In this document: piece by piece, positions 30,810 through 63,132 of the stretch | Layout of the letters: every line of letters starts with the position of its first letter | Position numbering within the stretch: position 1 is the first letter of the stretch | DNA from: an uncultured candidate division Zixibacteria bacterium | GTDB taxonomy: Bacteria; Zixibacteria; MSB-5A5; GN15; PGXB01 | Assembly: GCA_963702205.1 (NCBI GenBank) | Contig: OY969724.1 | Coordinates: 672,001 to 736,000, forward strand | Direction of reading: 5' to 3' | Length of the DNA stretch: 64,000 bases | Notes under the pieces: model-generated | What the model saw: only the letters and a program-made list of their open reading frames with translations | The model's database searches: none | Told to the model about the DNA's origin: nothing | Program-made: the position numbers and the translations under genes

Positions 30810-31025
30810 TGTGACCAAAACGTGACCAAAATGGTTACACGTTATTCGGTGTTATTGGGGGATATTGACTTGCAAACGCGGAGGTGGGGGGTACAATACC
30901 CCCGTCCGACTCGTAATCTATTGGATTATAATGAGTTATCTAAATGGAGGTGGGGGGAATCGAACCCCATACTCGCGTTGTGGCACAAGGACTTACACCC
31001 TATTGTGACCAAATTGTGACCGTTT
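30810..31025 (-). mobile_element. attP-like junction A: tmRNA 3'-end core (30945-30968) with TGTGACC arm repeats on both sides
   Basis: Minus-strand core GGGGTTCGATTCCCCCCACCTCCA; colinear 216-bp copy at 48709, offset 17,899 bp. Confidence 0.85.
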
Positions 31026-31111
31026 TTTCGCGAACTTGCGACTATCCGTATTGCCAGTGACAATGTCCCCACCCCAAGAGAACTGGATAGCAGCCCCCGC
31101 CGCATCTGGTA

Positions 31112-31780
31112 TCAGTTCTTAAGCATTCTGAGGAGAAAGAGATGTTGATTTCCCTGAATTACCGAAAGACGAAGGCCGACTCGAACACACAAATCCGAGA
31201 GTAGAGTCCTGCCTATATGAATCCAGCGGAATCCTGGTCCTTCTTTCTGCTTCCAAACCGGACACAGCCTAGTCGCCACAAACTTCTTTTGGGTCACTCT
31301 TCGCGCTATCACCAACACCTGGCCGTCGTCTTTCAGCAGCTTCGAGAGTTGTCTGAGCAGTCGCCTCGTCCCCTCCACCGAGCCGCCGATTCCGAGGCCG
31401 TTCCCCAGAAGTGTAATTGTGTCGTATTTCTCAGCTGTTAAAAAGGTGAAGATGTCGGCAGCCACGCAAGACTGGCAGCCAGCAATTCGAGCGACTTCTA
31501 TGACTTTTGGAGAAACGTCAATGCCAAGTACTTGTCCGCGATCGGCCAGTAATGGCAAGTAGTTGCCCGTGCCACAACCAACGTCCAGAATGTTGCCATG
31601 AGCCAGAGATATCAGTTTCCGTTCCATACCAGAGAGTTGCCCAGCTGTCCGAAAATATCTGCCTAAATCGACCTTAAACATCCTTCCGGAATTCTCCCTC
31701 AGGTAGAATGGCGACCTGTCTCCCCGTGAATAGGCCAGTAGAGCCTCCCCAAACACTTCCATCGATTGCTTTGCTGTCAT
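31112..31780 (-). CDS. Class I SAM-dependent methyltransferase
   Basis: ILDVGCGTG, GIDVS and YDTITLLGNG motifs. Confidence 0.88.
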   Translation of the reverse strand: MTAKQSMEVFGEALLAYSRGDRSPFYLRENSGRMFKVDLGRYFRTAGQLSGMERKLISLAHGNILDVGCGTGNYLPLLADRGQVLGIDVSPKVIEVARIAGCQSCVAADIFTFLTAEKYDTITLLGNGLGIGGSVEGTRRLLRQLSKLLKDDGQVLVIARRVTQKKFVATRLCPVWKQKEGPGFRWIHIGRTLLSDLCVRVGLRLSVIQGNQHLFLLRMLKN

Positions 31781-31871
31781 TAATCCCTCATAACTTCTAT
31801 GTTTTCACTGCGCCGGTGTGCTCGCAGCAGAGCAAATAGGAACAGTAAGAAAGCTGTCCCTTTCACTTCTG

Positions 31872-33437
31872 TCATTCCGCCAAAACCAGCTGCAGTTCGT
31901 TCACATAGACCACCCTTTTGTCTCGATTGGCAATAAACGCCCGCAACATGTAAGTAATATCGGGGAGCACCTTGGCGGCGATAATTGGCTGGCCGTCCAC
32001 GAACACCTGCACAGGTTTGGTCAAGTCAACCATGTCAGGTGATATCCTGATGGTCAAAGAACCAACTCGCGACGTCTGGAGTTCGAAGCGATTATTTTCA
32101 TATGAGGCCTTGATCACCGCCGACGGCTTCTCGCGCCGAAAGATATAGAAGGTCTTCGGCCGGGGCACTCTGCCATGGAGCGTAAGCAGACTATCTCCGC
32201 GCTTAACATCGATCCTAACCTCTGCCGCATATCTAAACGTCGCCTTCAATTTGCCTAGGTCAGCGCCACTATTGACCGTCACTCCGTTGCCACCTATAAT
32301 GATATCCGACGGCCGCACCCTAGCGTACCTCGCCACGAAATCCCCGTCTAGTACGGTGGCCACTCGCACGCCCGGAACGGTGCAGGTGTCGAACGTCATA
32401 ATCCCCAGTGACACAGTGCTGTCGATCAGTGCCACGTTGTAGTCGACATACCAGTCCGCGGGATCATCGATTGTCACATCATCAATCTTCAACCAGTGGC
32501 ACTCACCGTACTCGGGTGTTGCTGTCTCCCAATAGATAGCTTCTGGATAAGGACTGCGCGGATGTTGTTCAAGTGAATCCAATATCATCGCATAATCATA
32601 GGTTAATATGCTGGCAATGTGCTCGCCATCAAGTTGGTGGTGGTAAATATTGGCGCCTGCCTGCCGTGCCATACTGATCGCGCGCTGCATTTGTGATGTA
32701 GGGTAATACCTGTCTCGACTGGCCGTTGTGGCATAAACGTATGTGTTGCTCAGGTTAGGTGCATAAGTTGAGAAACCTCCATCTTCGCTACCGACACCCA
32801 TCGATCCGTTAAGAGCAGCATATGCGGCAAAATCATCGGGGCGAACCATGGCGTACAGGAACGCGGCAGAGGCACCGTCGGAGATTCCGCTCAAGAAGAC
32901 ACGATTGTCGTCGATATTGAAGTTCGACTTGAGCGCGCGAATTTGGGCCATCACGTTATCCATACCGACCCGGTCCCACCAGGTTGCTCCATCCTGACCA
33001 AAGGGAAAGAGAACCAGCCAACCGCGCTGCTCGGCAACCGACATGATAGCCGAGTCTCCAACGTACGTCTTCAAATCAGTTTCTATGTTTGGGCGACTAA
33101 CAATGCCGTGTAAATGGACCAGCAGTGGCGTCGCAATCCTGGGATTGTAGCCCGACGGCACGTAAAGGGCGTAAGGGCGAACGACACCGTCATCACACAA
33201 TGACTCTCCCCTAACGTCCTGCCCTTTCGTAGTATCAGGAAACGACAGCGACGTTAATTCAGCCATGACCGAGCGCCAGTTTAGCTGTGCCGTTTCAATC
33301 TGAACAATGAATGAATCCTGATTCACGCCGTCCGCAGAATTGATGAGTTCACTTAGCATGGTGTGCCAGTCTGCCGCCGAAGTAATCGGCGCTATTAACG
33401 ACAATAACCCAGCCACAATAGCTGCATATTTCTTCAT
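31872..33437 (-). CDS. Exported alpha/beta hydrolase (esterase/peptidase) with a PDZ-like insert
   Basis: Signal peptide; PLLVHLHG; GISDG nucleophile elbow; PGVRV..V...D.I...NG..V PDZ-like stretch. Confidence 0.72.
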   Translation of the reverse strand: MKKYAAIVAGLLSLIAPITSAADWHTMLSELINSADGVNQDSFIVQIETAQLNWRSVMAELTSLSFPDTTKGQDVRGESLCDDGVVRPYALYVPSGYNPRIATPLLVHLHGIVSRPNIETDLKTYVGDSAIMSVAEQRGWLVLFPFGQDGATWWDRVGMDNVMAQIRALKSNFNIDDNRVFLSGISDGASAAFLYAMVRPDDFAAYAALNGSMGVGSEDGGFSTYAPNLSNTYVYATTASRDRYYPTSQMQRAISMARQAGANIYHHQLDGEHIASILTYDYAMILDSLEQHPRSPYPEAIYWETATPEYGECHWLKIDDVTIDDPADWYVDYNVALIDSTVSLGIMTFDTCTVPGVRVATVLDGDFVARYARVRPSDIIIGGNGVTVNSGADLGKLKATFRYAAEVRIDVKRGDSLLTLHGRVPRPKTFYIFRREKPSAVIKASYENNRFELQTSRVGSLTIRISPDMVDLTKPVQVFVDGQPIIAAKVLPDITYMLRAFIANRDKRVVYVNELQLVLAE

Positions 33438-33580
33438 ATAATCTACCCTCGAGTCCGACGAGTCCTGTCTGTGGTAGATAGAATGTCAATCAATTCTCTG
33501 ATGCCTTCCTATACTCGAACCACTATGGACATGGTCGTTCCTGTCTTCCCCACATCAAGTTGGTCAGCACACTTGCACCA

Positions 33581-34096
33581 CTAGTCATATAGCCGCGAGC
33601 CCTTCTTTACAATTGGACAACTCACCCCATGAATAGTTCTGCGTGGCTCATTCCTATCGATCAGGTCTACTGTCCAGCCTTCTACCGAATACTCGACAAG
33701 CCTGAAATCGTAAACGTGTCCGGCTTCAGCATTGAAAGCGAACTTAAGACAGGCCTGATAAGCGCTACTCGGTAGAAATAGCTGACTAGTGGTACTCATA
33801 TCCCGTTTCGTCACCTGGCGCAATGTGAGTTGGTGGGAACCGGGGAGAAGCTCGAGCGTGTCTACGTAATCTATGTTCTCGGGTGTATCGCAATTGACCA
33901 CGAGCTTTTTCTCAAGACTCTCCAAATCATGCATTATGATGCGTGCAACCGCATCCGCCGGCTTTCTGGCGCCGTTCTCCGTTTCATACAGCACCCGCGT
34001 TCCGTGATACTCCCCCCCACATCCTACTGTCATTAAGGCAGTCAAAGACACGACCATGGAGAACGACGATTTGAGCCACTTCTTCCGTCTCTTCAT
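33581..34096 (-). CDS. Putative lipoprotein, paralog of 34452
   Basis: MKRRKK signal with TVGC lipobox; shares ARIIMHDL, DTLE.LPG.H and VEYS...W.VDLIDR.EP...IHG..CP with the paralog. Confidence 0.75.
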   Translation of the reverse strand: MKRRKKWLKSSFSMVVSLTALMTVGCGGEYHGTRVLYETENGARKPADAVARIIMHDLESLEKKLVVNCDTPENIDYVDTLELLPGSHQLTLRQVTKRDMSTTSQLFLPSSAYQACLKFAFNAEAGHVYDFRLVEYSVEGWTVDLIDRNEPRRTIHGVSCPIVKKGSRLYD

Positions 34097-34145
34097 CTCA
34101 CCCTCCCGAATTAACTCACACTTCACGGATTTGTAATCAATCGAT

Positions 34146-34346
34146 TCATCGACCTTCTTCCAGCTCGGCTGGCCAGTTGAGTACAACCTCGTATTCGGCC
34201 GGGGAGGCTTCGTGTGCCGCGGCCTTAATGATCACGAACTCCTGGCCGTCACTGGTCGCGTCGTAGCCGAAGTAGGTGTAACTTGCCGATTCGTCCTTCC
34301 AGCGCGGACGCACCTCCAGTGGAAATAGCTTCTGGGGCTTGCCCAA
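34146..34346 (-). pseudogene. C-terminal remnant of a sixth kinase-propeller gene
   Basis: PQKLF...GYDATSDGQEF...EVVLNWPAEL matches the C-termini of the genes ending at 35008 and 37699. Confidence 0.8.
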
Positions 34347-34451
34347 CCAGCAGAGTCGCGGCTCGGACTGTTAGAACGACCTTTGCGTTAGGCATATTAC
34401 CCTCTCCCCTCAAAACATTGTGTATCTGCCGCGTCCTGATTGTTTCCGGTG

Positions 34452-34955
34452 CTAGTCATATCTCCAGCCTACAAGGGGGCAGGTGGCGCCGTGGATGACT
34501 TTTTCCGGCTCCTGGCGGTCAATCAGATCGACTGCCCAGTTGCTGAATGAGTACTCGACCATCTTAAACTCGTACAAATGCCCCGACTTTACCTCGAACT
34601 TGAATAACCGGGCGGCCCGCGGGCTGCTCAACCAATAGGATACTTGTGACGAGCCGTGCAAGCTTTCTCGAAATAGAAGTCCCAGCACTATCCGGTGTGC
34701 TCCTGGGAGTACCTCAAGGGTATCTCTATAGTACACTGTCCGAGGGCCATCTACGATGATCACCAGATCTCTTTTGAGATTGCTCAGATCGTGCATGACA
34801 ATGCGTGCGACTTGATTTGCCGGCAGCCTTTCATCGCCGGGTTTTCCGTACATGACCTGTGTTTTGTGATAGTTCGTACCGCACCCCGCTACCAATTGGG
34901 TGACAAAGGCCACCAACATCAGCAGCACTACACTTCCGTACTTCTTCCGATTCAT
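34452..34955 (-). CDS. Putative lipoprotein, paralog of 33581
   Basis: MNRKK signal with LVAGC lipobox. Confidence 0.75.
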   Translation of the reverse strand: MNRKKYGSVVLLMLVAFVTQLVAGCGTNYHKTQVMYGKPGDERLPANQVARIVMHDLSNLKRDLVIIVDGPRTVYYRDTLEVLPGAHRIVLGLLFRESLHGSSQVSYWLSSPRAARLFKFEVKSGHLYEFKMVEYSFSNWAVDLIDRQEPEKVIHGATCPLVGWRYD

Positions 34956-35007
34956 TACCCTGCCCTCCTATATCGATTCGAACCTCACGGTTCACTGGTA
35001 CCTGAAG

Positions 35008-37699
35008 TTATCGAGCATATTCCAACTCCGCCGACCAGTTAAGGATGACTTCGATATCGCCGGCACTGCTCCCCTTCTCGTCATATGGTGTCACAAACAG
35101 AAACCGCTGACCGTCGTTCGAGACATCATACCCCCAGACAGTCGCAAGCGGGTCACGAATATACTCCCGCGTGAAAAGTAATTTAGGCGCGCTATATCGA
35201 AAGCCCTCCCTAAGGTCGAGCTGAACCGCCACAAAGTCGTTTCCCTCGAAAAAGAACAGCTCTTCTGTCGCCGGGCAAAAACGGGCCTGGGCGCCGGTGT
35301 GGGACAGGCACCATCGTCGCGCAGGTTGCTGCATATCGCAGACGAATATACGCCCCTCATTACTGTCTAACTGGTAAAGGAGATATCGGCCATCACCGAT
35401 TACCCCCCGCGCCCTGACAGGAGTGTGTAAAGAGCACTTCTCCTCTACCCTATCTGGGTCTTCCATTTGACGGACCAAGACGCGGCGACGAACGTCTGAC
35501 GATTCGTCGTGAAGATACTCGCACCACCAGAGCTTGTTAGAGGCGGACCAGCTTAATGGAATGAAATCAGACAAGCCGGATTCAATCGCCGTTTTCGGAA
35601 CCGGATCATCCAAGCGGCAGTACCGAATTGCGGCCACGTCCGACACGCCGTAGCCACAATACGCTACCGACTTTCCATCCGATGACCAGATCGGGAAATA
35701 CTCGGCTCCACTGTTTGAAGTCAGTCGGGATGCCACACCCGTCTCGGTGTAGAACACGCCTATTTTGAACTCTGATGCGGGCGACTCCCTGAAGCTGTAA
35801 GCTACTTTTTCATTGTCCGGGGAAAGTGAAATCTCACTATAGTAAACAGTTGGTCCCAGCGTATCCAATTCTCGTCCGCTCCGATCAACCCAGACCAGCT
35901 GGCTTGGTGCCAGCCTACTCTTCTGCAGCACGAGTATGTCGTTTTTCGACATGCCGGCACAGAAGTTCAAAGCGTCGTTCGAAATGAGCACGGCGTCTTT
36001 CGACTCCCGGACGGCAATCGGTTCCCCTTCGAACGCAAGAGACTTGAGATTGACCTGGCGCATGAACAAAGCGCCCTGCTGCAAGTAGAGAACCTGATCG
36101 TTGGGCGTGCATATCCCTTGGGAATTGGCCACGCCGAGTACGCGGTTGTCAACACCTTCTATATCCCCGATCTTCAGAGTGATCTCGTCGTCGTAGCCGC
36201 CCCACACCCGGGGCAGCGCTATGTAGACGAAATGACGCCCGTCGGACAGAAAGCTAGGCGTACCGGCGATTATCTCCCCCAGGCTGGTATCGGGACTTGT
36301 TGCCAGGGTAGGTTCGCCGCCAGAAGCAGAGACCTGGTAAATGGCGTGCGCGTCGTTGGGGTGATCATCGAATACGATCACATCCCGGCTACCCCAACTG
36401 CCGTCACCGCCGTTGGCTCGGCATATCAGTTGGGGCGAACCTCCGTCGGCCGCAACCTTCTTTAACTGTTTCCCTGCTTTGTCAAAATAGCCCAGGGTAC
36501 TTGCTATCGGGCGACCAGAAGGGGCGAAGAGCATCTGAAGTCCCGGGAAGAGGGAAAGCTACCGGTGAGTCGAGTGGTCGTACCCAGATCTGCGACCCGC
36601 CGGCGCTGTCGTAACCGGTAAACGCTAGAGATTTTCCATCGGGAGAGATCAATGGCATATTCATCCTGAGTATCCCCGGTGGCTTGGGAATTGTGAAACG
36701 AACGGTCCCCGCAGTGCGATCATCTTCCTTCAAAGCCCGTCCGCCAAGTATCAGCGCAATCAGGACACAGAGCGACGCCACACTCCACGCGACGGTCACA
36801 CCCCGCCGCCGTTTCGATGCCACCGGCGCCGGGATGCCCGCCTGTGACCCGGCCGAGGCGATCCACTCCAATTCATCTTTCAGATCGGCCGCTGATTGCC
36901 AGCGATCATCCGGGTCTTTTGCCAGACACTTCCGGATCAAACGATCAAGAGCCGGCGGAGAGGTCGGTTGAAGATCCGTTATAGAACGCGGCTCGTCCTT
37001 CATGATCGATCCGATCAAGCTCGCCCGGCTTGTCCCGGTGAAAGCTCGGCTTCCGGTTGCCATCTCGTACAGCACAGCGCCAAAAGAGAAGATATCGCTG
37101 CGTGGGTCTGCTTCCTTTGCCTCCAATTGTTCCGGCGACATATACTGCAGGGTTCCGACAATCGCCCCCGCTCCCGTTACGGGAGTGGTCTGTGTCTCCT
37201 CATTCATACCGACCACGGCTCCCGAGTGAAGTTTGGCCAGACCGAAATCGAGCAGCTTGGCGCCGTCCTTGGTTAGGAAGATGTTCCCCGGCTTGAGATC
37301 GCGGTGGACGACACCCTTGCGATGCGCCGCTTCCAGCGCGCCCGCCACCTGACTGCCGATTTCGAGGACTTTCGTGATGTCTAGTTTCCCTTTCACCAGG
37401 CGATCGGCGAGCGATTCCCCTTCCAGCAGTTCCATGACCAGGAAATAGACGCCGTTTTCATGCCCGATATCGTGCAGGGTGCAGATGTTCGGATGGTTCA
37501 GACTTGAGATAGTTTTCGCTTCACGTTCGAAACGAGCCCGGGCATCTTCATTCATCGCCGACTGTGGCGGCAGCACTTTGAGAGCCACCGTGCGACCCAG
37601 CCGCGTATCTGTTGCTTTGTACACTTCGCCCATGCCACCGGTCCCGGCGGGAGCGTCGATCTCATAAGACCCAAGCTTGTAGCCTTGTTCCAGACTCAT
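35008..37699 (-). pseudogene. Ser/Thr kinase-TM-beta-propeller (K5), split by a one-base frameshift at about 36495-36497
   Basis: Hanks motifs [15 protein letters not shown] and DFG; removing one C joins ...WSPDSKY to LGYFDKA...; WSPD/SPDG propeller repeats. Confidence 0.85.
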
Positions 37700-54331: not shown

Positions 54332-54370
54332 TGTGGCTATAAATATAGCCACATTTAGTTCTTGCGTCAA
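54332..54370 (-). promoter_or_regulatory. Sigma70 promoter with a palindromic operator over the -10 box
   Basis: Minus strand TTGACG-17-TATATT; palindrome TGTGGCTATA-AA-TATAGCCACA. Confidence 0.78.
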
Positions 54371-54541
54371 TGAGAATAAACGGAGGGTCTTCGAAAACTG
54401 AATTCAATAGTATCTATCGTCCCCCGAGATTCATTCGTGTCCCCCCAAGGAATTGCCTTCTTCTTCACATTTGCGCTTTGTTAGTTGATTTTGTAATCTG
54501 TTGTGTTACAGAGGATTACGAAATGAGTTGGCGGACTGAAA

Positions 54542-54605
54542 AATCGAACCCCATACTCGCGTTGTGGCACAAGGACTTACACCCTATTGTGACCATATTG
54601 TGACC
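54542..54605 (-). mobile_element. Hybrid att junction C: right arm plus the 7-bp overlap only
   Basis: Matches junction A from AATCGAACCCC through the TGTGACC pair (one mismatch); unrelated to A to the left of this. Confidence 0.8.
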
Positions 54606-54610
54606 ACTTT

Positions 54611-55312: not shown

Positions 55313-55314
55313 TC

Positions 55315-57009
55315 TTATAAGCTTTCAGTTTTTAGGTTCAAACTTGTGCTCAGGCGTGATACTGTTTCCTCTTGCCCTAGTACGTACAGCGCTCCTGTCG
55401 ATCGCGTAAGTCCAATATAGAGTAACTCCTTCCAGTTGAACCGCATCTGTTCGTCAAATTCACATAAAATTACTACAGGACTTTCTAATCCCTTGTAGCG
55501 ATGCACTGTCATTGTGACAATGTCATTGGAAGATTCTTTTGCCTCTACAAGCCTAAAGGGTCCAATCTTAGTATCGTACTTAAGAGCTGTCCGTTGCTGA
55601 GATTTAGTTCCTAAGATGACAATATCTGCAGGCTTCATACCCTCTGAAACAAGCCGCTGAAGCAACTTACTTATTACACGGAGCATATCATCGTCTGTCG
55701 AATAGGACAGCAATTGTACTTCTGGACCACTAACTCCACTTGACATAACTTCGTCCGGAAGTTCACATGCATGCTGCACGACTGCGAACACCTCATTTGT
55801 GTTTCTGATATTTCGATCAAGAACAACCGGAGGTGTCGTCATTGGATAGGTTGCGGTACCGTGATATATATTCTGGCTGGCATCCGCAAAGATGTAGAAA
55901 ACTGACTCGTCTGGGTTGGTGAATAGCATTTCTAACAGCACCCAATAGGCATCCTTAAAATCTTGACCTTCGTCCACAACAATGGCATCAAAACGATGCT
56001 TAATAGAGTCGATCTGATCTGCTACCAGGTTAGGGAATGTGTCCGACCACCACTCATCTGTATTTTCCACACTAACTTCGGTACCGACTTCCTCCAGCCA
56101 TCCGAAGCATAGATCGTGAAACGATCCCACTACTATGCTAGGTTGTGCTTCACATTCGTGTTTCAAATACTGACTAAGAGGTTTGTTGAAGCAGACCAGA
56201 AGAACACGGTTGCCTTTTTCTGCCAGAATCTTTGCCTTATGAACCGCAAGTGTTGTCTTACCTGATCCAGCACACCCGCGAATCAACATACGCCTCTGCT
56301 CCCGCAACAATTGGAGAACTTCTGCCTGGCGATCTGTGAGTTCTATAAGCTTATCGGCAATTTGTCTTATACGGAGAGAGGAAGAAGTTTGTCCTTTCAA
56401 TGGACGAGCTCCATAAAGTTGTCGAATGCCAGCAAGAATTTGTTTGCCATATGAACCCTGGATGTCCCCCTTGGGAAATGCTCTCTCAAACAGAGTATCG
56501 ATACTTTTCTTTAGATTATACAAACACTCCTGATCAAGGAGCTGCCACGCGTGCATATCCGCCCGAATGTCTCGTGTCTTGAAGACACAGTCTGGAAATA
56601 GAACTGCGTGATGATGAGGTATATATTTATCTGAGAGTGCGGGCTGTTTTAGAAGTAGTTTACAGATGTTTCGGCTGGCGATGCGGGATTGTTCGAACGG
56701 GTCGCTGATCTGGTGTTCTCCCCCTTCTCTGTCAAGGCTTCTCCATGAGCGAAAGGACGGATTGTAACTACATCGACCGCCTTTGATCTCTAGGGTCACA
56801 TATCCTATAGCTGGTTGGACTATCACAAAATCGATTTGCCCGACAGTTTTGCTGTCCTCCAAGCTTGGATCATCCCACATAAGATCATGAAACACGTGAT
56901 ATCGATTATCGAGTTCTCTCGATAGCTTCTCGTAAATGGCACGTTCCGAATCTACGTGGTAACCGCTGAAAGCTTCAGTTAAGCTGTTAGGGTACATTAC
57001 CGCCATCAA
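55315..57009 (-). CDS. NERD nuclease-SF1 (UvrD-like) helicase fusion
   Basis: QIDFVIV...EIKGG; GCAGSGKT; VDEGQD; RYKGLE; YIGLTRS. Confidence 0.85.
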   Translation of the reverse strand: MMAVMYPNSLTEAFSGYHVDSERAIYEKLSRELDNRYHVFHDLMWDDPSLEDSKTVGQIDFVIVQPAIGYVTLEIKGGRCSYNPSFRSWRSLDREGGEHQISDPFEQSRIASRNICKLLLKQPALSDKYIPHHHAVLFPDCVFKTRDIRADMHAWQLLDQECLYNLKKSIDTLFERAFPKGDIQGSYGKQILAGIRQLYGARPLKGQTSSSLRIRQIADKLIELTDRQAEVLQLLREQRRMLIRGCAGSGKTTLAVHKAKILAEKGNRVLLVCFNKPLSQYLKHECEAQPSIVVGSFHDLCFGWLEEVGTEVSVENTDEWWSDTFPNLVADQIDSIKHRFDAIVVDEGQDFKDAYWVLLEMLFTNPDESVFYIFADASQNIYHGTATYPMTTPPVVLDRNIRNTNEVFAVVQHACELPDEVMSSGVSGPEVQLLSYSTDDDMLRVISKLLQRLVSEGMKPADIVILGTKSQQRTALKYDTKIGPFRLVEAKESSNDIVTMTVHRYKGLESPVVILCEFDEQMRFNWKELLYIGLTRSTGALYVLGQEETVSRLSTSLNLKTESL

Positions 57010-57029
57010 TCGTCCTTGCTCATATCTGT

Positions 57030-59012
57030 CTAATTAAGTTCCTCTCTCCAAGCCTCATAGATCATCACCATGGCAAGTGTATCGAGTTCACAATACTTTA
57101 GAAGCGCCGACACGATCTTCTCACGTTCATACTCACTCATTTCAGAGAACTGCATCCGACAATAAGCGATCATGGCAGCCCCACCTTCCCGAATATCCTC
57201 GTCCTCAGATATCAGGTCTTCGGATATCTCAATCCCATCTTCAAATATAGGAGGTAGTATATTATATGGCTCGATTACGGTACCATCGTGATTGAATTGC
57301 ACCCAGGACCAATCAGTGTAGTTGAGACTACAGATTCCTCCTGATGAGCCATATATAGGCTTTGAGTACTTTTCCTGTAGATACTCTGAGGAATTCAGGA
57401 TCGCTGGAAGAACGCTCTTTATGGAATTGGAGCCATGTGTTGCTGGGTCATAGTAATACTTCTTTACTAAGTCACACATGTCTACCATGCAACGTGACCC
57501 CTCATTTCCTGCTATCTTCGCGATTGACTCGATGAACCTACACAAATCATCTCGGTCTGGTGGAGGCGCTGGAGCACTCTGAAGTTGTTTATATACTTCA
57601 ACAAGGTAAGTGTTTTCATGGGCAGCGTACCGGAAGATCGTACCATTATCTTGCTCCAGCTGCCTTTTTAGCTCGCGCACACTCTCATAATTGGGGAACG
57701 CACCCGGAGCTGCGTTTATGTATTGCCCGGCATGTTCCACAGTGCCGTCTTCAAGAATAGTGTGATGAGAAAACTGAAAGAAAATTGCCTCATAGGGTCT
57801 TCTGCCTTTATTGAACGGAATAGCGACCCTAGCTGTTTCAAAGTCAATATGATGCAGGGGGAACACCCATTTTTCCATCTCAGCTTTCATCCCTACCTTG
57901 TCGAAGTAGGCTGTGCTATCTTCATTTTTGACTTTTTCAGCCTGGAGCCACTGTCTTTCCGAACTTGACAATCCTGAGCCTGGATTAGCTTTAATGCTTA
58001 TATCGTCTTGTTCCAGGTCTCTTAGCTTGAGTTTCCCTGAGGCGATATATGAGTCTTTTCTTCTTGAATTCCACAGCTCCAATACACATGGCTCTTGAAA
58101 GTCGCCTGCTTGCCAATTGAGTGTGCCGATCCAGCATTCCTTGAAACCGTTCTTTAGCCCGGTTGCTTCCTCTTCAGGTGTAGCTCTAAACTGACACTTC
58201 GAACACTTTGATCCAATCTGCGGAGTGATCTTACTATCCTTCTCGTAGTTTACAGAAAGGATGTCTATAAGATCTGAATAGCATAGTTCTTCATCTCCCA
58301 CCTGGTACTTATCCTTATGAATCAACTGGATAAAGTCGTCTACTGGTACCTCGACTAAGATCTTTGTCTTTAAGTCGTCTTCATTGAGTGAGGAAGAAAT
58401 CTTAATGCCCTTCCTGTGTGCTTCATCCCTTACAATGCGAAACTTCTGATTAAGTCCATCTGTTGGACAAGAAACGCTTTTATCCGCCATCATGAGATAC
58501 GAACTAATTCGGTAATTGGGACAAGCGTTCTCTAACACATATTTCTGAAACGCTACATCATGACAGTATGGCTGCCAATCTGATTTGATTTTTCCGGCTT
58601 TGGTTAGAAAGGGCTGGGCTTCTGGACTGTCGAAGGACTTCGATTTAACCTCTATAAGTCTCAGATTAGTGCCATGCTTGACCAGAATGTCGATGCGAAT
58701 CAGCAGGTTCTCATGACGAAAAGCAGGTTCATACATAATGACCCGGTCTTTTTTCATCAAATCTGCAGTCATGGCTTCGGCTTCTTGATAATCTAGGGTG
58801 TCGATATTGATGCCACCTGCGTAATATTGTCTGGCTAGTTCTCCAACCTGATAGCCACCCTCCGCCAACGCTGCGAGGAATGGATCCTCCTGGCTTTTAT
58901 CGGGGTAGTCTTTCTTTCGGACATAGAATAGCTTGGTTGGACAATCAAGGCCAACCATGAACCTACTTTTCGTTAAAAACCGAGGTTTCATTTCACTCCT
59001 TATTTGAATCAA
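57030..59012 (-). CDS. DUF2779 protein: Cas4-like PD-(D/E)XK nuclease plus RNase H-like domain
   Basis: LTKSRF...CP, RIDIL...IEVKS, CSKC...C; IDFET, FQFSHH, GSNSIK and YCELDT motifs. Confidence 0.78.
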   Translation of the reverse strand: MIQIRSEMKPRFLTKSRFMVGLDCPTKLFYVRKKDYPDKSQEDPFLAALAEGGYQVGELARQYYAGGINIDTLDYQEAEAMTADLMKKDRVIMYEPAFRHENLLIRIDILVKHGTNLRLIEVKSKSFDSPEAQPFLTKAGKIKSDWQPYCHDVAFQKYVLENACPNYRISSYLMMADKSVSCPTDGLNQKFRIVRDEAHRKGIKISSSLNEDDLKTKILVEVPVDDFIQLIHKDKYQVGDEELCYSDLIDILSVNYEKDSKITPQIGSKCSKCQFRATPEEEATGLKNGFKECWIGTLNWQAGDFQEPCVLELWNSRRKDSYIASGKLKLRDLEQDDISIKANPGSGLSSSERQWLQAEKVKNEDSTAYFDKVGMKAEMEKWVFPLHHIDFETARVAIPFNKGRRPYEAIFFQFSHHTILEDGTVEHAGQYINAAPGAFPNYESVRELKRQLEQDNGTIFRYAAHENTYLVEVYKQLQSAPAPPPDRDDLCRFIESIAKIAGNEGSRCMVDMCDLVKKYYYDPATHGSNSIKSVLPAILNSSEYLQEKYSKPIYGSSGGICSLNYTDWSWVQFNHDGTVIEPYNILPPIFEDGIEISEDLISEDEDIREGGAAMIAYCRMQFSEMSEYEREKIVSALLKYCELDTLAMVMIYEAWREELN

Positions 59013-59097
59013 GAATCGACTTCATTTCTAAGAAGTGGCCCTAACGAATCCATCACTGGTAGCAAGATGTCCTTCAACTTGATTCGATACACGCGGT

Positions 59098-62000
59098 TCA
59101 TTCGAGCAGCGCTTTGATAGCCAGCGCAGTCTTCTTAAGTGTGCCTGAGTCTAGGCCCCCGCGGTCATCATCCTCCGACGTATACAACGTTTTTCCCTCA
59201 ATAAAGCCGTTCTTAGAATACCAATCCAGCTTCCACTTCCATCCGCGGCGATAATCCTCACGGCTCATCATGCCAAGGTGTTCCCAAATGATGAGATCAC
59301 CGTCAGCAGTGACAAAAGAGAAATCAGGACGTAGACGACCTGGCTCAACCGCTCCATCGCAAACACGCTCGTATTCATATTTGATGTCGAGCTGATAAAG
59401 CATGTTCGCTATAACTAATTCAGACTTACTTCGAACCAAATGTCCCTTCTCTGTTCGATGTATAAGATACTCCGCATATGGCACATCGTCACTATTGAGT
59501 CTTGTCGCACCGTGAAATAAGTTCGTGTTGCGACGGGCCACTTCAGATCGCTCAGGTCGAGTTAGATCAAACAGCACTGTTGCATTCTGTCCTTCTATCA
59601 ACAGGACGAGTTGATCCCGAGATCTTGTGAGGGCCGTATAGATTAGTTCGCGTGACAGAAGTCTGCAATTCTTCGGTAGTATGACAAATACTTTCTTGAA
59701 TTCACTGCCTTGAGCCTTGTGCACTGTTAGTGCGTAAGCCAAATCAAGAGGTCCAGCCCCACTCGGGAAGTCACTTCCACGATAGCCGAATCTCAAATTG
59801 GCTCGTCCAGCAAAAAGAACATTTAGAAAGCCACCCTTTCCAGGTGCTACAAGCCCTACTTCACCATTTGCGATATAATATTTATCGCTGGAGGATCCGT
59901 CGTAAGCCCTTCTCCACTGGTTTACCTTCTGAATAACTTTGTCCTTCTGTACAATACTCTCATCACCCAAACAAGTGCCCCACGGCTGAGTCGCCGCTTC
60001 GAGTTGTTTACTACGGTATTGGCGCTGAATCCATCTGTTGATCTCGTAGATGCCATGAGAATGCATTCGAACAGGTGATAAAATTTGCCAATTCTCACTT
60101 CCTTCAGGCGCACCAAACGGTACCCATCCTCGATCATCAAGTCCAAGCGAAGTATCGAATCCAGCAATATCCGACTTATCGTCTAAACCAAGATGTCTGA
60201 CAAAAGCCCCTGACAAGCGCGAACGAAGCTCATCAGAGTTTTCCCAGAAAATGATTTCTAAATCGTTAAAAGTCCCCGTGGTCTCCAATTCACTTAAAAC
60301 CCTGTCAGCGTCCACGGGTTGTGGTTCACGCGTAAACCAGGACGCTAGGCGAAGTGTATCTGACGTATCTCCGCTAGATGTTGCGGTTCTCACCTCGACT
60401 GACAGACGTGCAAGAGAGTGACGAAGGGGTGTGCCATCACTGGCTTCTTCTTCGGTAGTTGCCAGGAATGCTTCGAGGTCGGCAAACGGACGACCAACGC
60501 CGATCGGAGGTAGCTGATTTGGATCACCAATAAGAATGATTCTCTGAACATGTGCAAGGTCCAATGCTTCAAAAACTGCCACCATATCGTCCATTGTAAG
60601 CATTGAGCACTCATCTATAACGACTGTTTTCTCTTTTCTATACTTTTCTTTTCCATCAAACAGGGGACGTTGTCGATTGCCGTCGTAGCGTCCAAGACGG
60701 TGCAGAAACTGTGCTACAGTCATAGCTTCTGCTTTAGCAGCCTTCGCAAGCCGAACGCGAGCCTTTCCCGTGGGAGCGAGCAATAGGATGCCATCTTTCG
60801 CAATTGGTTCACAAAGCATGAGCGCGCCCATAACGGAGGTCTTGCCGGTACCCGCTCGACCTACGAGGACTGTCAGACGCCTTGAACAGAGTTGCTGAAG
60901 TGCAATCGCCTGTTCTTCAATTGCGAGCTCGTGTCTTGTATTCGAGGAATCGAACTCTCCGCCTACTGCGGTGATAGCTTCGACCAATAGTTTCTTCCAT
61001 TCTGTCTTGACTTCTGGCACCACCTTCGTAGCTCGCTTAGTTAGAATCGACCGTAAGCGATTTTCCCTCTTTTTTAGATCGTAGAGCTGTAGTGCTGAAG
61101 TCTTCTTTCCAGATGTTTCATCAACAACCACATCTACCAGCTCCACCACACCGTCCAGAAAACTCATATTCGCTGTGGGCCAGTCAGTCAGTATGTTGCA
61201 AGGATGTGCCAGATCTAGGTTTGAAACCGTTTCAAGTGATTCAACCGTACTAAGCAGTGCATCTCCTTCAAGGGAAGCGTTTCGGAGCGTTGACACAATC
61301 GCTGCACGAATTCGGCGTGGGTCGTTAGGTGAAGAGATCGTCGACGGTTCTGGCACTGGGTGTTTTGCAGCAATACTTGCTTCAGGGAGAAGACCGCGAT
61401 CGACCATGCCGACTGATACTGGTGAGTCGTTCATATCTCCAAGATCTACTTCGCTCATCCTGTAGGGATTCTCAAGAATCTCAGAATCAGCAACTAAATT
61501 GGTTACACCTTTAGCTCTAATCGTAGGATCAAACCATCTAACAGCCTGAGCAGGTGTGAAAGCTATTCGAGACAAAAGCATTAGTAAAGCCCGACGTTCA
61601 GGATCTAGATTAGCCCAACTACTATGTACAGCATCAAGGTCAGGCTGATAAGCACTCTGAGGTGGCTTTATTTTCCCCTGTAATAAGGCATCAACCACTG
61701 GCCATGGATTAGCATCAGGTGCAACCATCTTGGAAGATATCATCTCCAATGAGAGAGCCGTACCCAAGCGCATTCCCAACGCTTCTAATACCGATCCCAA
61801 GCCGGGAAATGCACCCCTTTCTTTCCAGGCTATGGCTATTTGACTATTGAGCCACTCTTCTCGACGTTCCCATGGTCCCTTAGCTATTCCGTGCTTACGA
61901 ATCGTCCGAACCGCTTTCAAACAGCGAACCAAGGTTGACAGCGCAATGTCTGAAGAAGCAAGCTCTGCGGCATAGGAGAAAACGCGCATATGTGCAGGGT

Positions 62001-62790
62001 CAGCTGGAACGGCAATTTCTCGTAATAGATCTACTCTACGAGCATCTTCCTCCGGATCACCTGTTGGATCCAAGTAATCATGGTATGGAAAGAGAAAACC
62101 ATCTTCGCCATCGGGTCGGATTGAATGTCGGAAAAGACCGTCCCACATAAGATGTGACGGTTTATTTCCATTTACATCATACTCCTTGGGTGGTGCGATC
62201 GATACAATCCTTCCTACTCCTACAACAAGTCTTGGAAAAGTGTCTCCGAGTGGTTGACCTTCCTTACAATAGAAAAATACCAATGACTGTTCGGGAACGA
62301 GTCGGCCAAAAAACAGTTTGAGCAAAGCTCTTTGTCGGGCACTACCGAAAACCCATGAACTTTCAAAAGGGGACTGTTCATCTGGCGGAAGTGGCTCAGG
62401 TAACCTTTCATCAATTCCATTTTGCTCACTACGTAACATCCATGCAAAGGGCACCGCAAAAGTAGCATATTCAGGGATCTTCACTTTAGTCGGCTTCAAA
62501 TGGCCATGCGTGTTCGCAGTTTTTTTGATGTTTGAATAAGGATGCTCAAACTCTCGAATCCATTTTTGTGGATTCATAAATACACCCGACTCCGCCTTGC
62601 AAGGAGGTAAATCCGATTGCGAGATTTTATCCCAGGGTAAGCCCGCTAAGGTGTCTTCTTCATCCTTCCGGTTTTCACGGATTCGGTCAAGCGCTACACA
62701 AAAGCAATTGCGTGAAGGCTCCCTACAAACAGAGCCATTCCAACGGGAGTCATGCCAAGCAACCCTTACAGTTAAATGAAACAATCGCAA
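59098..62790 (-). CDS. Large RecD-like SF1B helicase with a C-terminal restriction-endonuclease-like domain
   Basis: GRAGTGKT, IDECSM, GDPNQLPP, TVHKAQGSE and YTALTR motifs; C-terminal RSKSE...PDF...WEHLG. Confidence 0.85.
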   Translation of the reverse strand: MRLFHLTVRVAWHDSRWNGSVCREPSRNCFCVALDRIRENRKDEEDTLAGLPWDKISQSDLPPCKAESGVFMNPQKWIREFEHPYSNIKKTANTHGHLKPTKVKIPEYATFAVPFAWMLRSEQNGIDERLPEPLPPDEQSPFESSWVFGSARQRALLKLFFGRLVPEQSLVFFYCKEGQPLGDTFPRLVVGVGRIVSIAPPKEYDVNGNKPSHLMWDGLFRHSIRPDGEDGFLFPYHDYLDPTGDPEEDARRVDLLREIAVPADPAHMRVFSYAAELASSDIALSTLVRCLKAVRTIRKHGIAKGPWERREEWLNSQIAIAWKERGAFPGLGSVLEALGMRLGTALSLEMISSKMVAPDANPWPVVDALLQGKIKPPQSAYQPDLDAVHSSWANLDPERRALLMLLSRIAFTPAQAVRWFDPTIRAKGVTNLVADSEILENPYRMSEVDLGDMNDSPVSVGMVDRGLLPEASIAAKHPVPEPSTISSPNDPRRIRAAIVSTLRNASLEGDALLSTVESLETVSNLDLAHPCNILTDWPTANMSFLDGVVELVDVVVDETSGKKTSALQLYDLKKRENRLRSILTKRATKVVPEVKTEWKKLLVEAITAVGGEFDSSNTRHELAIEEQAIALQQLCSRRLTVLVGRAGTGKTSVMGALMLCEPIAKDGILLLAPTGKARVRLAKAAKAEAMTVAQFLHRLGRYDGNRQRPLFDGKEKYRKEKTVVIDECSMLTMDDMVAVFEALDLAHVQRIILIGDPNQLPPIGVGRPFADLEAFLATTEEEASDGTPLRHSLARLSVEVRTATSSGDTSDTLRLASWFTREPQPVDADRVLSELETTGTFNDLEIIFWENSDELRSRLSGAFVRHLGLDDKSDIAGFDTSLGLDDRGWVPFGAPEGSENWQILSPVRMHSHGIYEINRWIQRQYRSKQLEAATQPWGTCLGDESIVQKDKVIQKVNQWRRAYDGSSSDKYYIANGEVGLVAPGKGGFLNVLFAGRANLRFGYRGSDFPSGAGPLDLAYALTVHKAQGSEFKKVFVILPKNCRLLSRELIYTALTRSRDQLVLLIEGQNATVLFDLTRPERSEVARRNTNLFHGATRLNSDDVPYAEYLIHRTEKGHLVRSKSELVIANMLYQLDIKYEYERVCDGAVEPGRLRPDFSFVTADGDLIIWEHLGMMSREDYRRGWKWKLDWYSKNGFIEGKTLYTSEDDDRGGLDSGTLKKTALAIKALLE

Positions 62791-62899
62791 CTCCTAATAT
62801 TCATAATTCTGACTTCAAGCAACCCATCTCGGACTTTCTGGTGAATAACTTCTTCAAAGTCTGTGCGGATGGCACATTGATGCCACTAATAACTCACAC

Positions 62900-63070
62900 T
62901 CATCTGTTCCTTTTACCAATCGCTACAAACTGTCTTATCAGTTTTTCCACTATACTTTGAATCGTCTCTCCACTTCGAACCGCCTTAACCTTCAAACTCT
63001 TATGAGTCTTGTGATCAAGTCGAATATGAACCATGGGACCTCTACTGGATGAACCATTTGATTCTCGCAT
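62900..63070 (-). CDS. Small ribbon-helix-helix protein, copy 3 (56 aa, not in the ORF track)
   Basis: Manual translation: MRESNGSSSRGPMVHIRLDHKTHKSLKVKAVRSGETIQSIVEKLIRQFVAIGKRNR*; AAGGAG RBS. Confidence 0.82.
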   Translation of the reverse strand: MRESNGSSSRGPMVHIRLDHKTHKSLKVKAVRSGETIQSIVEKLIRQFVAIGKRNR

Positions 63071-63094
63071 TCGCTCGCTCCTTATAGAAATCAG

Positions 63095-63132
63095 TGGCTA
63101 TAAATATAGCCAAATCATGTTGCCACGGTCAA
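63095..63132 (-). promoter_or_regulatory. Sigma70 promoter with a palindromic operator over the -10 box
   Basis: Minus strand TTGACC-18-TATATT; palindrome TGGCTATA-AA-TATAGCCA. Confidence 0.78.

Follow-up and report, generated by a model that had tools for sequence, protein, structure and literature searches.

Flexible genomic islands are common beside tRNA and tmRNA genes, and, to our knowledge, there is little understanding of how such islands, with no resident recombinase, go on gaining and swapping small sets of genes. Integrons hold an ordered stack of small one-site cassettes at a fixed chromosomal site, the newest nearest to it, and the locus described here has a functionally similar outcome. 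It differs from integrons in that it has no IntI/attI platform or single-stranded attC hairpins, its units have their own promoters, and its recombinase is itinerant.

CIMEs and the site-specific accretion of ICEs and IMEs are known from work on Streptococcus ICESt1/ICESt3, reviewed in PMC5704250. As far as the available part of that review describes them, CIMEs, like the units here, keep attL/attR-type sites, are missing integration and transfer genes, and form tandem stacks at a target gene's 3' end together with an integrase-bearing element, the internal att sites being chimeric. In comparison, the units here are far smaller (1-6 kb), more numerous and recurrent across a class; their cargo directly follows the P' arm without integrase remnants, their junctions outconserve their cargo, and a subset shares an RHH/operator head. 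The ssrA-specific islands of Dehalococcoides, in the accessible portion of PMC3146451, likewise lie in tandem within 100 kb downstream of ssrA, insert at the T-loop and have direct repeats of the ssrA 3' end at their boundaries; several have no integration module and were suggested to be CIMEs, and several units here likewise lack one. Those islands use a large serine recombinase in a six-gene module, a 20-bp repeat plus a 15-bp motif, and reductive dehalogenase cargo, whereas our locus has a lambda-type tyrosine integrase with arm-type sites, a 90-220-bp attP-like junction, and mixed sensing, defence and metabolism genes. Prochlorococcus tycheposons are also tyrosine-recombinase elements that target tRNA/tmRNA genes, and in their islands successive integrations displace older elements inward, with adaptive cargo modules, scattered partial tRNA copies and degenerate elements; the text seen of this preprint describes the arrays as integrase-bearing elements and degenerate remnants, not as intact attP-like junctions framing integrase-less cassettes (bioRxiv 10.1101/2020.12.28.424599). 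The tandem tRNA/tmRNA islands of Islander/TIGER, in the excerpts at hand, share the integrase-mediated tDNA island, the regenerated target and the displaced fragment at the far end; because these tools key on integrase-bearing islands, integrase-less mini-units may be missed (PMC4383910, PMC12424338).

The 64,000-nt stretch of DNA analysed here (the window) lies within a ~99-kb stack of foreign units inserted successively at the end of the tmRNA gene, ssrA (Table 1). The array fits best among CIMEs and site-specific accretion, as an extreme form of these that spans a class, and not as an integron. Counted from ssrA, it consists of a 44-kb element, unit B (5.7 kb), unit A (17.9 kb) and unit Z (31.4 kb); the last was delimited by junction J0, which lies 493 bp left of the window and thus makes window positions 1-30800 a further ~31-kb unit. 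As in tDNA islands, ssrA is intact and its 3' fragment is repeated at the far ends. An integrase beside the regenerated target gene is found for the newest unit, the 44-kb element, only, and not for units B, A and Z. Like CIMEs, units A and Z are flanked by integration-derived att sites (J2 (P') and J1 (P) for A, J1 (P') and J0 (P) for Z) and have no integration or transfer genes of their own. The cargo is wholly on the minus strand and ends 0-90 bp short of the next P arm. Pfam scans found no recombinase domain in 20 ORFs at 31112-63828; the 14 ORFs of units A and B and the 26 of unit Z likewise lacked recombinases, relaxases and coupling proteins, which bears out the first-pass annotation that the 17,899-bp and 5,685-bp units carry no recombinase. 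The only PF00589 match between genome positions 671 and 771 kb was the gene adjoining ssrA.

Table 1. Features of the ssrA array (window positions unless stated otherwise; parts of a feature follow it).
Feature	Position	Strand	Details
J0	genome 671467-671587, 493 bp left of window		P arm + core
Unit Z, J0 to J1, ~31.4 kb	1..30800	-	Pfam scan, 26 ORFs; G6PD, 6PGL, 6PGD, P-type ATPase, GH130, PMM, PMI, PGI, phosphoketolase, acetate kinase, glycogen phosphorylase, HPF, BON, LuxR response regulator, CdaA, NhaA
J1, full attP-like site	30801..31029	-	junction HMM 262.8 bits
J1 P'-arm repeats	30811-30831	-	TTTTGGTCAC x2
J1 box	30841-30856	-	AATAACACCGAATAAC
J1 pseudo-core	30880-30909	-	T-arm-like
J1 spacer	between core and pseudo-core	-	35 nt
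J1 ssrA core	30945-30968	-	24 nt
J1 element-side segment	between P arm and core	-	32 nt
J1 P-arm direct repeats	31002-31021	-	GGTCACAAT x2
Unit A cargo	31112..48360	-	Pfam; four tandem paralogous Ser/Thr kinases (~890 aa, with TPR or PD40 sensor repeats), 405-aa kinase, PD40 protein, two unassigned proteins, esterase/PDZ protein, SAM methyltransferase
RHH module 1	48422..48669	-	gene 48425-48607, stop at 48422
Module 1 promoter	48640-48669	-	TTGACT-18-TATATT
Module 1 putative operator	48633-48648	-	GGCTATATTTGTATCC
J2, full attP-like site	48703..48928	-	junction HMM 260.5 bits; AATAAC box 48740-48755, core 48844-48867, P arm 48901-48920
Unit B cargo	48977..54042	-	1280-aa STAND NTPase + 381-aa membrane protein
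RHH module 2	54131..54370	-	gene 54134-54310
Module 2 promoter	54342-54370	-	TTGACG-17-TATATT
Module 2 perfect palindrome	54334-54351	-	TGGCTATATTTATAGCCA
J3, attR-type only	54491..54611	-	junction HMM positions 4-120, 69.9 bits; first 11 nt of core 54542-54552, 32-nt segment, P arm 54586-54605
44-kb ssrA-proximal mobilizable element, distal part	54611..64000, continuing to window-equivalent 98790	-	in window: 233-aa Zn-ribbon-like protein, NERD-UvrD helicase, DUF2779 protein, 1230-aa PDC-S68 helicase, small ORFs
RHH module 3	62900..63132	-	56-aa RHH gene 62903-63070
Module 3 promoter	63103-63132	-	TTGACC-18-TATATT
Module 3 palindrome	63095-63112	-	TGGCTATATTTATAGCCA
44-kb element, remainder	beyond window		two Replic_Relax genes, two T4CP-like genes, Phage_rep_O, HTH, RuvC, kinase/PP2C/VWA, UvrD, DruE-like 2119-aa helicase, type IIG R-M enzyme, DrmD-like SNF2 helicase, PD-(D/E)XK nuclease, integrase
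Tyrosine integrase	starts ~170 nt after ssrA		PF00589 111 bits + SAM-like N-domain (Phage_int_SAM_5)
ssrA, intact	genome C1:770790-771148 = window-equivalent 98790-99148	-	188 bits

The junctions and cassettes reported in the first-pass annotation are confirmed as real, and the interpretation placed on them is partly supported. Its junction coordinates (30810, 48709 and 54542) correspond to a 220-nt direct repeat (30810-31029 and 48709-48928; 88% identical, spacing 17,899) and to a 71-nt sub-repeat present three times (third copy at 54542-54612; 93-96% identical, spacing 5,685). On the minus strand the junction core, GGGGTTCGATTCCCCCCACCTCCA, and the 3' end of this genome's tmRNA gene agree in every letter, as expected from the proposed derivation from the host ssrA. 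Its 24 nt, the last of ssrA, occur exactly four times in 3.98 Mb: in ssrA and at three junctions (window positions 48844 and 30945, and 493 bp left of the window), with 11 nt at the fourth junction, J3. The P-arm pattern has five copies in the genome, every one at ssrA or an array junction. The P arm consists of two GGTCACAAT repeats, and the P' arm of J1 and J2 of two TTGGTCAC repeats. Since J1 and J2 hold a P arm, the 24-nt core and a P' arm, they are reconstituted attP sites; the attP-like character claimed for 30810 and 48709 thus holds, both sides carrying arm-type repeats. At 54542, the junction comprises the P arm but only the first 11 nt of the core, the right half having diverged, and lacks P' repeats. 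The 44-kb integrase-bearing element has its far end here, at J3. The pseudo-core, the sole hairpin of the junction, folded no better than shuffled sequence (z -0.6 to -1.9).

Extending the contig rightwards located both genes predicted beyond position 64000, an intact ssrA 35 kb right of the window and a tyrosine integrase directly after it. This lambda-type integrase of the 44-kb element adjoins a P' arm, and its orthologs in two relatives (G012 and G038, 88% and 72% identity) also lie directly after ssrA. Assignment as an integron integrase was rejected (80.4 bits against a 265-bit cut-off for TIGR02249; 46 against 435 for NF011946).

Three mutually homologous RHH-type genes (Table 1) stand behind the same promoter and palindrome, in line with the layout initially described as shared by two units and a third block. 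However, no att junction lies upstream of RHH module 3, and the block at 63070 is not a junction-bounded cassette but lies within the 44-kb element that carries the integrase. Between 48300 and 63400, the best three sigma-70-like sites are those before the RHH genes. Each of these promoters overlaps the palindrome (T)GGCTATATTT(A/G)TA(G/T)CC(A), and in 3/3 of them the 18-bp palindrome overlaps the -10 box. Promoterless cassettes with a common Pc were rejected as a model, each RHH-headed unit having its own strong sigma-70-like promoter. The RHH proteins fell below threshold against Pfam/NCBIfam (best Antitox_RHH, E 0.007, 17 bits where the cut-off is 27.2). In PDB, a profile search returned ParG (E 0.0096), and the nearest Atlas clusters were ParG, HicB/FitA, CopG and Arc (score 0.94). 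The AF2 model (pLDDT 79) has an extended segment followed by helices 20-33 and 37-60, and its top Foldseek matches were Arc, AmrZ, AtaR and CopG (TM 0.55-0.66, all E >0.7). Judged by position and repeat structure, the RHH proteins may bind the palindrome. They would then be autorepressors, each gene sitting on a portable promoter-operator that drives its own cargo operon, and the near-identity of the operators makes it probable that the RHH-headed units belong to a single regulon. Among relatives, 8 of 10 RHH matches lie 64-102 nt past a P'-bearing junction. RHH-headed cassettes are only one cassette class: a hand tally found an RHH head at ~8 of the ~38 P'-bearing junctions examined in relatives.

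Junction DNA was present in 115 of 160 genomes of the order, and close integrase orthologs in 8 of 160, a lower bound because integrases often lie at contig ends and many relatives are fragmented metagenome-derived assemblies. With the integrase absent from ~95% of junction-carrying genomes, most arrays are without a resident recombinase. Class-wide, 149 of 285 genomes have the P arm, and two P arms, from another family (G045) and another order (G199), are 100% identical to that of J1 over 85-89 nt. An nhmmer search gave 92 junction matches at 32 loci (568 kb), comprising 25 full, 44 P-only, 10 core+P' and 13 other matches, with P' arms less conserved than P arms. Of the 8 loci that include ssrA, 7 have an array directly downstream of it, and junctions can be dense, with up to six matches in 10 kb (L065) and four junctions within 11.4 kb (G030). 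G002, of the same genus, has the order ssrA-P'-RHH-kinase-P arm, a 3.2-kb unit without integrase, and integrase-less 1-6 kb tandem units with the same junction occur downstream of ssrA across the class. Cargo is varied and neighbourhoods differ, so cassette content and order are not fixed, a point on which the first-pass annotation could have failed. Of the 136 array cargo ORFs in relatives, 93 are co-oriented and 43 are not.

Two cassettes are common to different genera or families at 88-95% nucleotide identity, and their homology ends at or near junctions (within ~190 nt). One pair, in G030 and G083, shows 88-90% identity (90.5% and 87% for the proteins), compared with 72% for RecA; homology begins at the core and stops at the next core. 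The G030 copy is third or later in its array (the contig starts before it), and the G083 copy is directly at ssrA. The G128 and G049 cassettes are 94.7% identical, compared with 88% for RecA and 82% for EF-G, and have different neighbours. The attR of G014 reads P arm-GGGGTTCGATT, followed by a different right half ending in CCA and a hairpin-T-run resembling a terminator; the switch after GGGGTTCGATT also occurs in G002 and J3, which points to a crossover in the T-loop. The junction census and the shared cassettes support reading the units as discrete cassettes, and we infer that integrase-less units may be mobilised in trans.

We consider it likely that the ~99-kb array arose from repeated site-specific integration into the ssrA T-loop, with the RHH regulation outlined above and an integrase mechanism as follows. 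The integrase, carried only by rare autonomous elements, would bind the arm repeats, and the location and repetition of the GGTCAC repeats make them candidate sites. Strand exchange would take place within the TTCGATT loop, which the inverted GGGGG/CCCCC core sites flank. A unit with a P'-bearing junction upstream and a P arm downstream would be excised as an attP-bearing circle, and this would apply to the 44-kb element and to units A and Z, as well as to composites. The only public runs located consist of contigs and contain 5% of the sampled words; no excised product, circle junction or empty site was seen. The circle would be re-inserted at ssrA or another junction by integrase acting in trans or in cis. 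Unit B has a downstream P arm only; lacking a P' arm, it is probably not excisable alone, contrary to the first proposal that the units are individually excisable, and should move only within a composite.

Decay is the textbook origin of CIMEs in the part of PMC5704250 consulted, and the units could be full integrase-bearing islands that lost their integrase and transfer genes and are now fixed, their junctions functionless scars. The clearly eroded 1.75-kb islet of G014, the missing P' arm of J3 and of 44/92 junction matches (P-only outnumbering the 25 full), and the occurrence of the integrase in only 8/160 genomes fit this account. Against it, the 568 kb of arrays hold no integrase fragments: the 111 ORFs scanned (of 136 array ORFs) contained 0 integrases and one IS110 transposase, and an integrase tblastn gave one unrelated match (32% identity, E<=1) just outside an array. 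In the 25 full junctions, the P' arm is intact to the last arm repeat with cargo directly after. Non-coding junctions are more conserved than coding cargo (88-93% for those flanking the RHH-plus-beta-helix cassettes of G030 and G044, compared with 65.7% nucleotide identity for the cassettes), P arms are 100% identical across orders, and shared cassettes, more alike than RecA, sit at different positions in the array and among different neighbours. The lack of integrase remnants and the intact P' arms argue against a recent origin by decay, although eroded islets exist; the classical CIME route is doubtful for these units, and inert decay is quite unlikely overall.

If homologous recombination following DNA uptake or co-transfer were the main route of exchange, with junctions as portable homology arms that the integrase only occasionally seeds, a rare integrase would also fit. 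Every unit is flanked by 90-220 bp at 85-100% identity that RecA-mediated exchange could equally use, and homology boundaries inside the junction repeats fit homologous as well as site-specific recombination. We nevertheless regard this as unlikely, since the conserved arm-type repeats and inverted core point to protein-binding constraint, and the right core half, which would preserve ssrA function, is kept in full junctions and not in P-only ones. That the repeats are assembly joins or collapsed repeats, a possibility raised in the first-pass annotation, had nothing in its favour and is barely conceivable, given a genome in a single 3.98-Mb contig, copies that differ (88% identity over 220 nt) with different flanks, and the same architecture in >100 independent assemblies. 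A true integron or a direct relative would likewise have tandem cassettes with one recombination site each and a tyrosine recombinase. This reading has next to no probability, because the integrase rides on a mobile element and not beside attI as a platform-resident IntI, double-stranded attP-like sites that bear arm-type direct repeats make up the junctions in place of attC hairpins, and each cassette brings its own promoter. Judged from the sequence, the three features that define integrons (attC, promoterless cassettes, platform-resident IntI) are all absent, and the earlier description as integron-like survives as analogy only.

Beyond repeated integration at this one locus, we tentatively propose, as a serious possibility that falls short of probable, a class-wide cassette system analogous to integrons and built independently from lambda-type parts. 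In it, ssrA would be the fixed acceptor for cassettes of 1-6 kb (occasionally 18-31 kb), made up solely of cargo and a ~220-bp attP and kept recombination-competent by selection. One itinerant ssrA-specific integrase on rare mobilizable elements, absent at any time from ~95% of host genomes, would shuffle them between families and orders. The RHH/operator head would provide one cross-acting repressor over a subset (sensor kinases, STAND NTPases, defence helicases and secreted proteins). Because the same junction frames integrase-less cassettes in many relatives, the system resembles integrons but uses ordinary island-integration parts. The lineage offers a clean case, with a sharp junction conserved across orders, dozens of minimal exact-boundary cassettes, an identifiable cognate integrase and a candidate common regulator, which together make the question of cassette movement testable. 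The junction HMM gives a practical means of mining metagenomes of this uncultured class for accessory, defence and sensing genes, and the system suggests a compact attP/integrase pair for cargo insertion at tmRNA genes.

The cargo of the integrase-less units is diverse. Unit Z is an island of carbon and stress metabolism genes by Pfam, and its segment at 9788-18408 had no DNA match in five relatives, three of them of the same genus. The 381-aa protein of unit B has four hydrophobic helices, read by eye from the translation; it had no match in Pfam, PADLOC or NCBIfam, leaving its earlier SLATT call without family support. The kinase domains of unit A match PADLOC kinase models (PD-T4-6 family), and the unit has a repeat period of ~2.65 kb. 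The STAND NTPase of unit B combines DUF4062, NACHT/AAA_16 and TPR_12 repeats, the last visible in the DNA as a 120-nt tandem repeat.

Repeats within the window were traced to the tmRNA gene of the same genome. The window corresponds to C1:672001-736000 in a genome assembled as one 3.98-Mb contig. A repeat search of the window gave two direct copies of a 220-nt sequence, 30810-31029 and 48709-48928, with 88% identity and a spacing of 17,899; a 71-nt part of it is present once more at 54542-54612, with a spacing of 5,685. On the minus strand, the repeats hold GGGGTTCGATTCCCCCCACCTCCA, a T-arm with an alanine-type acceptor 3' strand. ARAGORN and Rfam found no tRNA or tmRNA gene within the window. 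The sole tmRNA gene of the genome, ssrA (188 bits), lies to the right, where the first-pass annotation had predicted an intact copy beyond 64000, and the repeat core matches its final 24 nt exactly. Exact copies of this 24-mer number four in the genome, namely ssrA, 48844 and 30945 in the window, and genome position 671507, which precedes the window by 493 bp; a further site, at 54542, has the first 11 nt. The core thus recurs at the junction sites (J0 to J3), fully or in part, and the three junctions first annotated are real and tmRNA-derived, as had been proposed. Only the five known sites were recovered when the array was searched for further degenerate junctions (nhmmer --max, E<=50). A marginal match at 20117-20175 (E 0.052) had no junction appearance by eye and was rejected.

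Junctions, units and RHH modules of the ssrA array (window numbering, carried past 64000 for ssrA and the 44-kb element)
Feature	Position	Strand	Size	Content or structure
ssrA	98790-99148 (C1:770790-771148)	minus		tmRNA gene
44-kb element	54612 to 98790		44 kb	integrase, two Replic_Relax, two T4CP-like, Phage_rep_O, HTH regulator, RuvC, kinase/PP2C/VWA set
J3	54491-54611			P arm only; core match up to GGGGTTCGATT, then divergence
Unit B			5.7 kb	RHH, 381-aa protein with four hydrophobic helices, DUF4062-NACHT-TPR protein
J2	48703-48928	minus		continues past core with P' side
Unit A			17.9 kb	RHH, four tandem ~890-aa kinases and a 405-aa kinase, PD40, esterase, methyltransferase genes
J1	30801-31029	minus		continues past core with P' side
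Unit Z	1-30800 in window		31.4 kb	carbon and stress metabolism island, junction-flanked
J0	left of window			P arm only
RHH module 1	48425-48607
RHH module 2	54134-54310
RHH module 3	62903-63070

Junction anatomy was read from an alignment of the five sites in minus-strand orientation. All share a common plan, in which a P arm of two direct GGTCACAAT repeats, 11 bp apart, is followed by a conserved 32-nt segment with no ssrA match and then by the 24-nt core. At J1 and J2, the core leads into a 35-nt spacer, a T-arm-like pseudo-core (TCGGACGGGGGT-loop-CCCCCCACC), a AATAACACCGAATAAC box and, beyond the box, a P' arm of two TTGGTCAC repeats. The stem of the pseudo-core is conserved and its loop is not; a role as RNA hairpin or terminator was rejected, as its stem folds no better than shuffled sequence (z -0.6 to -1.9) and lacks a T-run behind it. 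Past the end of ssrA comes a P' arm that has diverged but keeps the AATAAC box and GGTCACAATTTGGTCACAAT. A tyrosine integrase of 336 aa (Phage_integrase, 111 bits, plus a SAM-like N-domain) begins about 50 nt beyond this arm; it is the integrase that had also been expected beyond 64000. This layout matches the lambda type, with attL as B-core-P'-int and internal junctions as P(new)-core-P'(old). Since the attR sites of two relatives, G014 and G002, switch sequence directly after GGGGTTCGATT, as J3 does, strand exchange would take place in or beside the TTCGATT T-loop, between the inverted GGGGG/CCCCC arms. The displaced right half in G014 terminates in CCA, with a terminator-like hairpin behind it, and fits the original ssrA end.

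The array spans about 99 kb from ssrA to J0, and the extent first annotated was wrong. It contains one of the six PF00589 genes of the genome, the one adjoining ssrA, and no recombinase domain was found among 46 scanned ORFs of the window. The 44-kb element looks like an integrative mobilizable element. It carries much cargo of defence type, among it a type IIG R-M enzyme (875 bits), two helicases that are DrmD-like (SNF2) and DruE-like (2119 aa), UvrD and AAA_21 proteins, a NERD-UvrD helicase and PDC-S68 at full length (1432 bits). Unit B had been described as an individually excisable cassette. As its P' arm is absent, under the canonical mechanism it should move only together with a neighbour. 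Its 381-aa protein, previously called SLATT, has no match in Pfam, PADLOC or NCBIfam, and the call was rejected. The gene for the NACHT protein of this unit contains 11 tandem 120-nt repeats at 49268-50767 (60-91% identical), which code for its 40-aa TPR_12 units.

In unit A, four tandem paralogous kinase genes occupy 37699-48360 with a period of ~2.65 kb and kinase domains of 75-85% nt identity. Their C-terminal sensor domains differ (PD40/WD40 in two, TPR in two), and the set looks like local amplification and sensor swapping within one cassette. Unit Z encodes oxidative pentose-phosphate enzymes, PGI, phosphoketolase, acetate kinase, glycogen phosphorylase and mannose enzymes, as well as HPF, BON, a P-type ATPase, CdaA and NhaA. 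No DNA match to its central 8.6 kb was found in three same-genus and two other same-family genomes, and the unit looks like a mobile "dormancy/stress metabolism" island. GC content was set aside as an island marker, as the units depart only modestly from the genome value of 0.504 (0.546 in unit A and 0.528 in unit Z, 0.451 in unit B and 0.452 in the 44-kb element; SD of 5-kb windows 0.035). Just left of J0, between it and a flank conserved in G002, are genes for an ECF sigma factor, a 150-aa ORF and a beta-lactamase-family protein (L009 8487-11236, genome 668487-671236), gene kinds that are common cassette cargo elsewhere. Given this resemblance to the cargo of relatives, the array may formerly have been longer beyond J0, with its outermost junctions now eroded.

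The three small genes heading the RHH modules share GPM(V/I)H(V/I)RL and the remaining strand-helix-helix pattern. Several lines of evidence, each weak on its own, agree and are consistent with an RHH fold. A profile compared with the PDB matched ParG (E 0.0096), and the nearest Atlas clusters were ParG, HicB/FitA, CopG and Arc (score 0.94). The AF2 model (pLDDT 79) has helices at 20-33 and 37-60; its top Foldseek matches were Arc, AmrZ, AtaR and CopG, with TM 0.55-0.66 and every E above 0.7. Homologs in a large protein collection were 21 unnamed small proteins without Pfam domains. The best three sigma-70-like sites in window 48300-63400 (10/12 matches each) are those upstream of the RHH genes. 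Each -10 box is inside (T)GGCTATATTT(A/G)TA(G/T)CC(A), a perfect 18-bp palindrome in modules 2 and 3, with TGGCTATATTTATAGCCA as the putative operator. We infer that the RHH protein is an autorepressor on a portable promoter, and the operator shared by the modules suggests possible cross-regulation among RHH-headed units.

The block at 63070 had been annotated as a third one with the layout of units A and B. The nhmmer scan of the array found no junction before this module, which is therefore not a separate cassette. Among relatives, 8 of 10 RHH matches sit 64-102 nt past a P'-bearing junction, and about a fifth of P'-bearing junctions are RHH-headed. In G002, of the same genus, a minimal 3.2-kb unit reads ssrA-P'-RHH-kinase-P. 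Outside the window, at C1:3411443-3412340 (3.41 Mb) and ~3.5 kb from a tRNA-Glu, a fourth homolog with 48% identity to RHH 1 adjoins a kinase-homologous stretch. This pair has no junction, which shows that RHH-kinase modules are not confined to the ssrA array.

Junctions of this kind are widespread in the lineage. The strict P-arm pattern was present in 9 of 40 relatives. BLAST with a 230-nt J1 query (E<=1e-6) detected junction DNA in 115 of the order's 160 genomes; roughly one match in ten was weak (E>1e-8) and possibly reflected the ssrA end only. A 91-nt P arm plus core query matched 149 genomes among the 285 of the class, spread over 12 of 20 families; outside the order, 30 of 125 genomes matched at E<=1e-10 by hand count. 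Genomes from another family (G045) and another order (G199) were 100% identical to J1 across 85-89 nt. Close integrase orthologs (E<=1e-60, >=42% identity) were found in 8 of 160 genomes, directly after ssrA in G012 (88%) and G038 (72%). Most array-bearing genomes thus have no integrase, which occurs in ~5% of genomes.

A junction HMM gave 92 matches in 32 fetched loci (568 kb), comprising 25 full, 44 P-only, 10 core+P' and 13 other sites, so that P-only junctions outnumber full ones. An array lies directly downstream of ssrA in 7 of 8 ssrA-containing loci; in G003, the 8 kb covered contained none. Typical unit sizes are 1-6 kb, and spacing can be dense, with 4 junctions in 11.4 kb (G030), two full junctions 1.1 kb apart (G059) and six P-only junctions in 10 kb (G081). 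Cargo varies, including sensor kinases, beta-lactamase-family proteins, ECF sigma pairs, T9SS-sorted proteins, efflux pumps and NorB. Among the 136 array ORFs of at least 100 aa, 93 are co-oriented with ssrA. No integrase and one IS110 transposase were found in the 111 scanned for domains, partly at E<=1e-9. No clean attB was found in the same-genus genomes: ssrA is at a contig end in G001, the downstream flank in G003 is not syntenic with this genome, and G002 has its own, different array.

Comparison of relatives showed cassettes shared as units. G030 (L023:7615-11656) and G083 (L068:10768-8191), genomes of different families, share a cassette whose homology runs from core to next core in two blocks of 88-90% nt identity, separated in G030 by an extra 1.45-kb gene. 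The cassette is directly at ssrA in G083 and third or later in G030, where the contig starts before it. Its proteins are 90.5% and 87% identical, against 72% for RecA. Similarly, a 1.9-kb ECF-sigma cassette in G128 and G049 is 94.7% nt identical with differing neighbours, against 88% for RecA and 82% for EF-G. Homologous recombination between the conserved junctions would give an identical comparative pattern. In G030 and G044, an RHH-plus-beta-helix cassette has 65.7% nt identity, against 88-93% for the flanking junctions. Junctions that outlast their coding cargo, with P arms identical across orders, argue for a present-day function over scars. Two public read runs were found, each with 5% of sampled words and kept as contigs. 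One contig joining 48791 to 54545 was considered as an excision product of unit B and rejected; its likeness was 85% and its shorter side spanned 45 letters, and it more plausibly represents a junction of a different organism.

Among known systems, the architecture fits cis-mobilizable elements (CIMEs) with site-specific accretion, as defined in PMC5704250. A near precedent is Dehalococcoides (PMC3146451), which has tandem ssrA islands bounded by ssrA repeats with T-loop insertion, several without integration modules and suggested to be CIMEs; a serine recombinase acts there, in contrast to the tyrosine integrase here. Tycheposons likewise form arrays at tRNA and tmRNA genes, according to bioRxiv 10.1101/2020.12.28.424599. 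Unlike integrons, the array has no attC sites, its cassettes have their own promoters, and its integrase is lambda-type, itinerant and far under integron-integrase cut-offs. The array is not an integron. The outline of the first-pass annotation, an integron-like series of integrase-less RHH-headed cassettes, was largely right; its errors concerned how far the array extends, the block at 63070, unit B and the SLATT assignment. We file the array as CIME/accretion at ssrA in variant form, and there is a realistic prospect that it functions as an independent system of integron-like cassettes. Judged by a limited, not lineage-specific literature check, several features seem new: the degree and regularity, with attP-only mini-cassettes in long series; the class-wide spread, junctions under apparent constraint and an integrase confined to so few genomes; and the RHH/operator head shared by a subset of cassettes.

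Further traces of integration were observed outside these units. An orphan degenerate P arm with a diverged core lies outside the window at C1:3276848-3276923, far from ssrA and with no tRNA in the ~9 kb flanking it on each side; a rearrangement or a secondary insertion may have left it behind. In G014, a 1.75-kb islet between ssrA and attR holds the 3' fragment of another tRNA-like gene (GGGGCGAGTTCGAGTCTCGCCCACCCCGCCA; L025 11560-11600) and the tail of a P-type ATPase gene, which are traces of other, eroded insertions. When the integrase was searched by tblastn against all 568 kb (E<=1), the single match was a 32%-identical integrase in G090 (L061 1105-2184), starting right after a P-only junction, and a second integrase family may target the displaced core there. 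A 52%-identical relative of the ssrA integrase in G014 (L044 1284-1361) is located ~130 nt from tRNA-Glu and not at ssrA, which suggests a target switch within the integrase clade.
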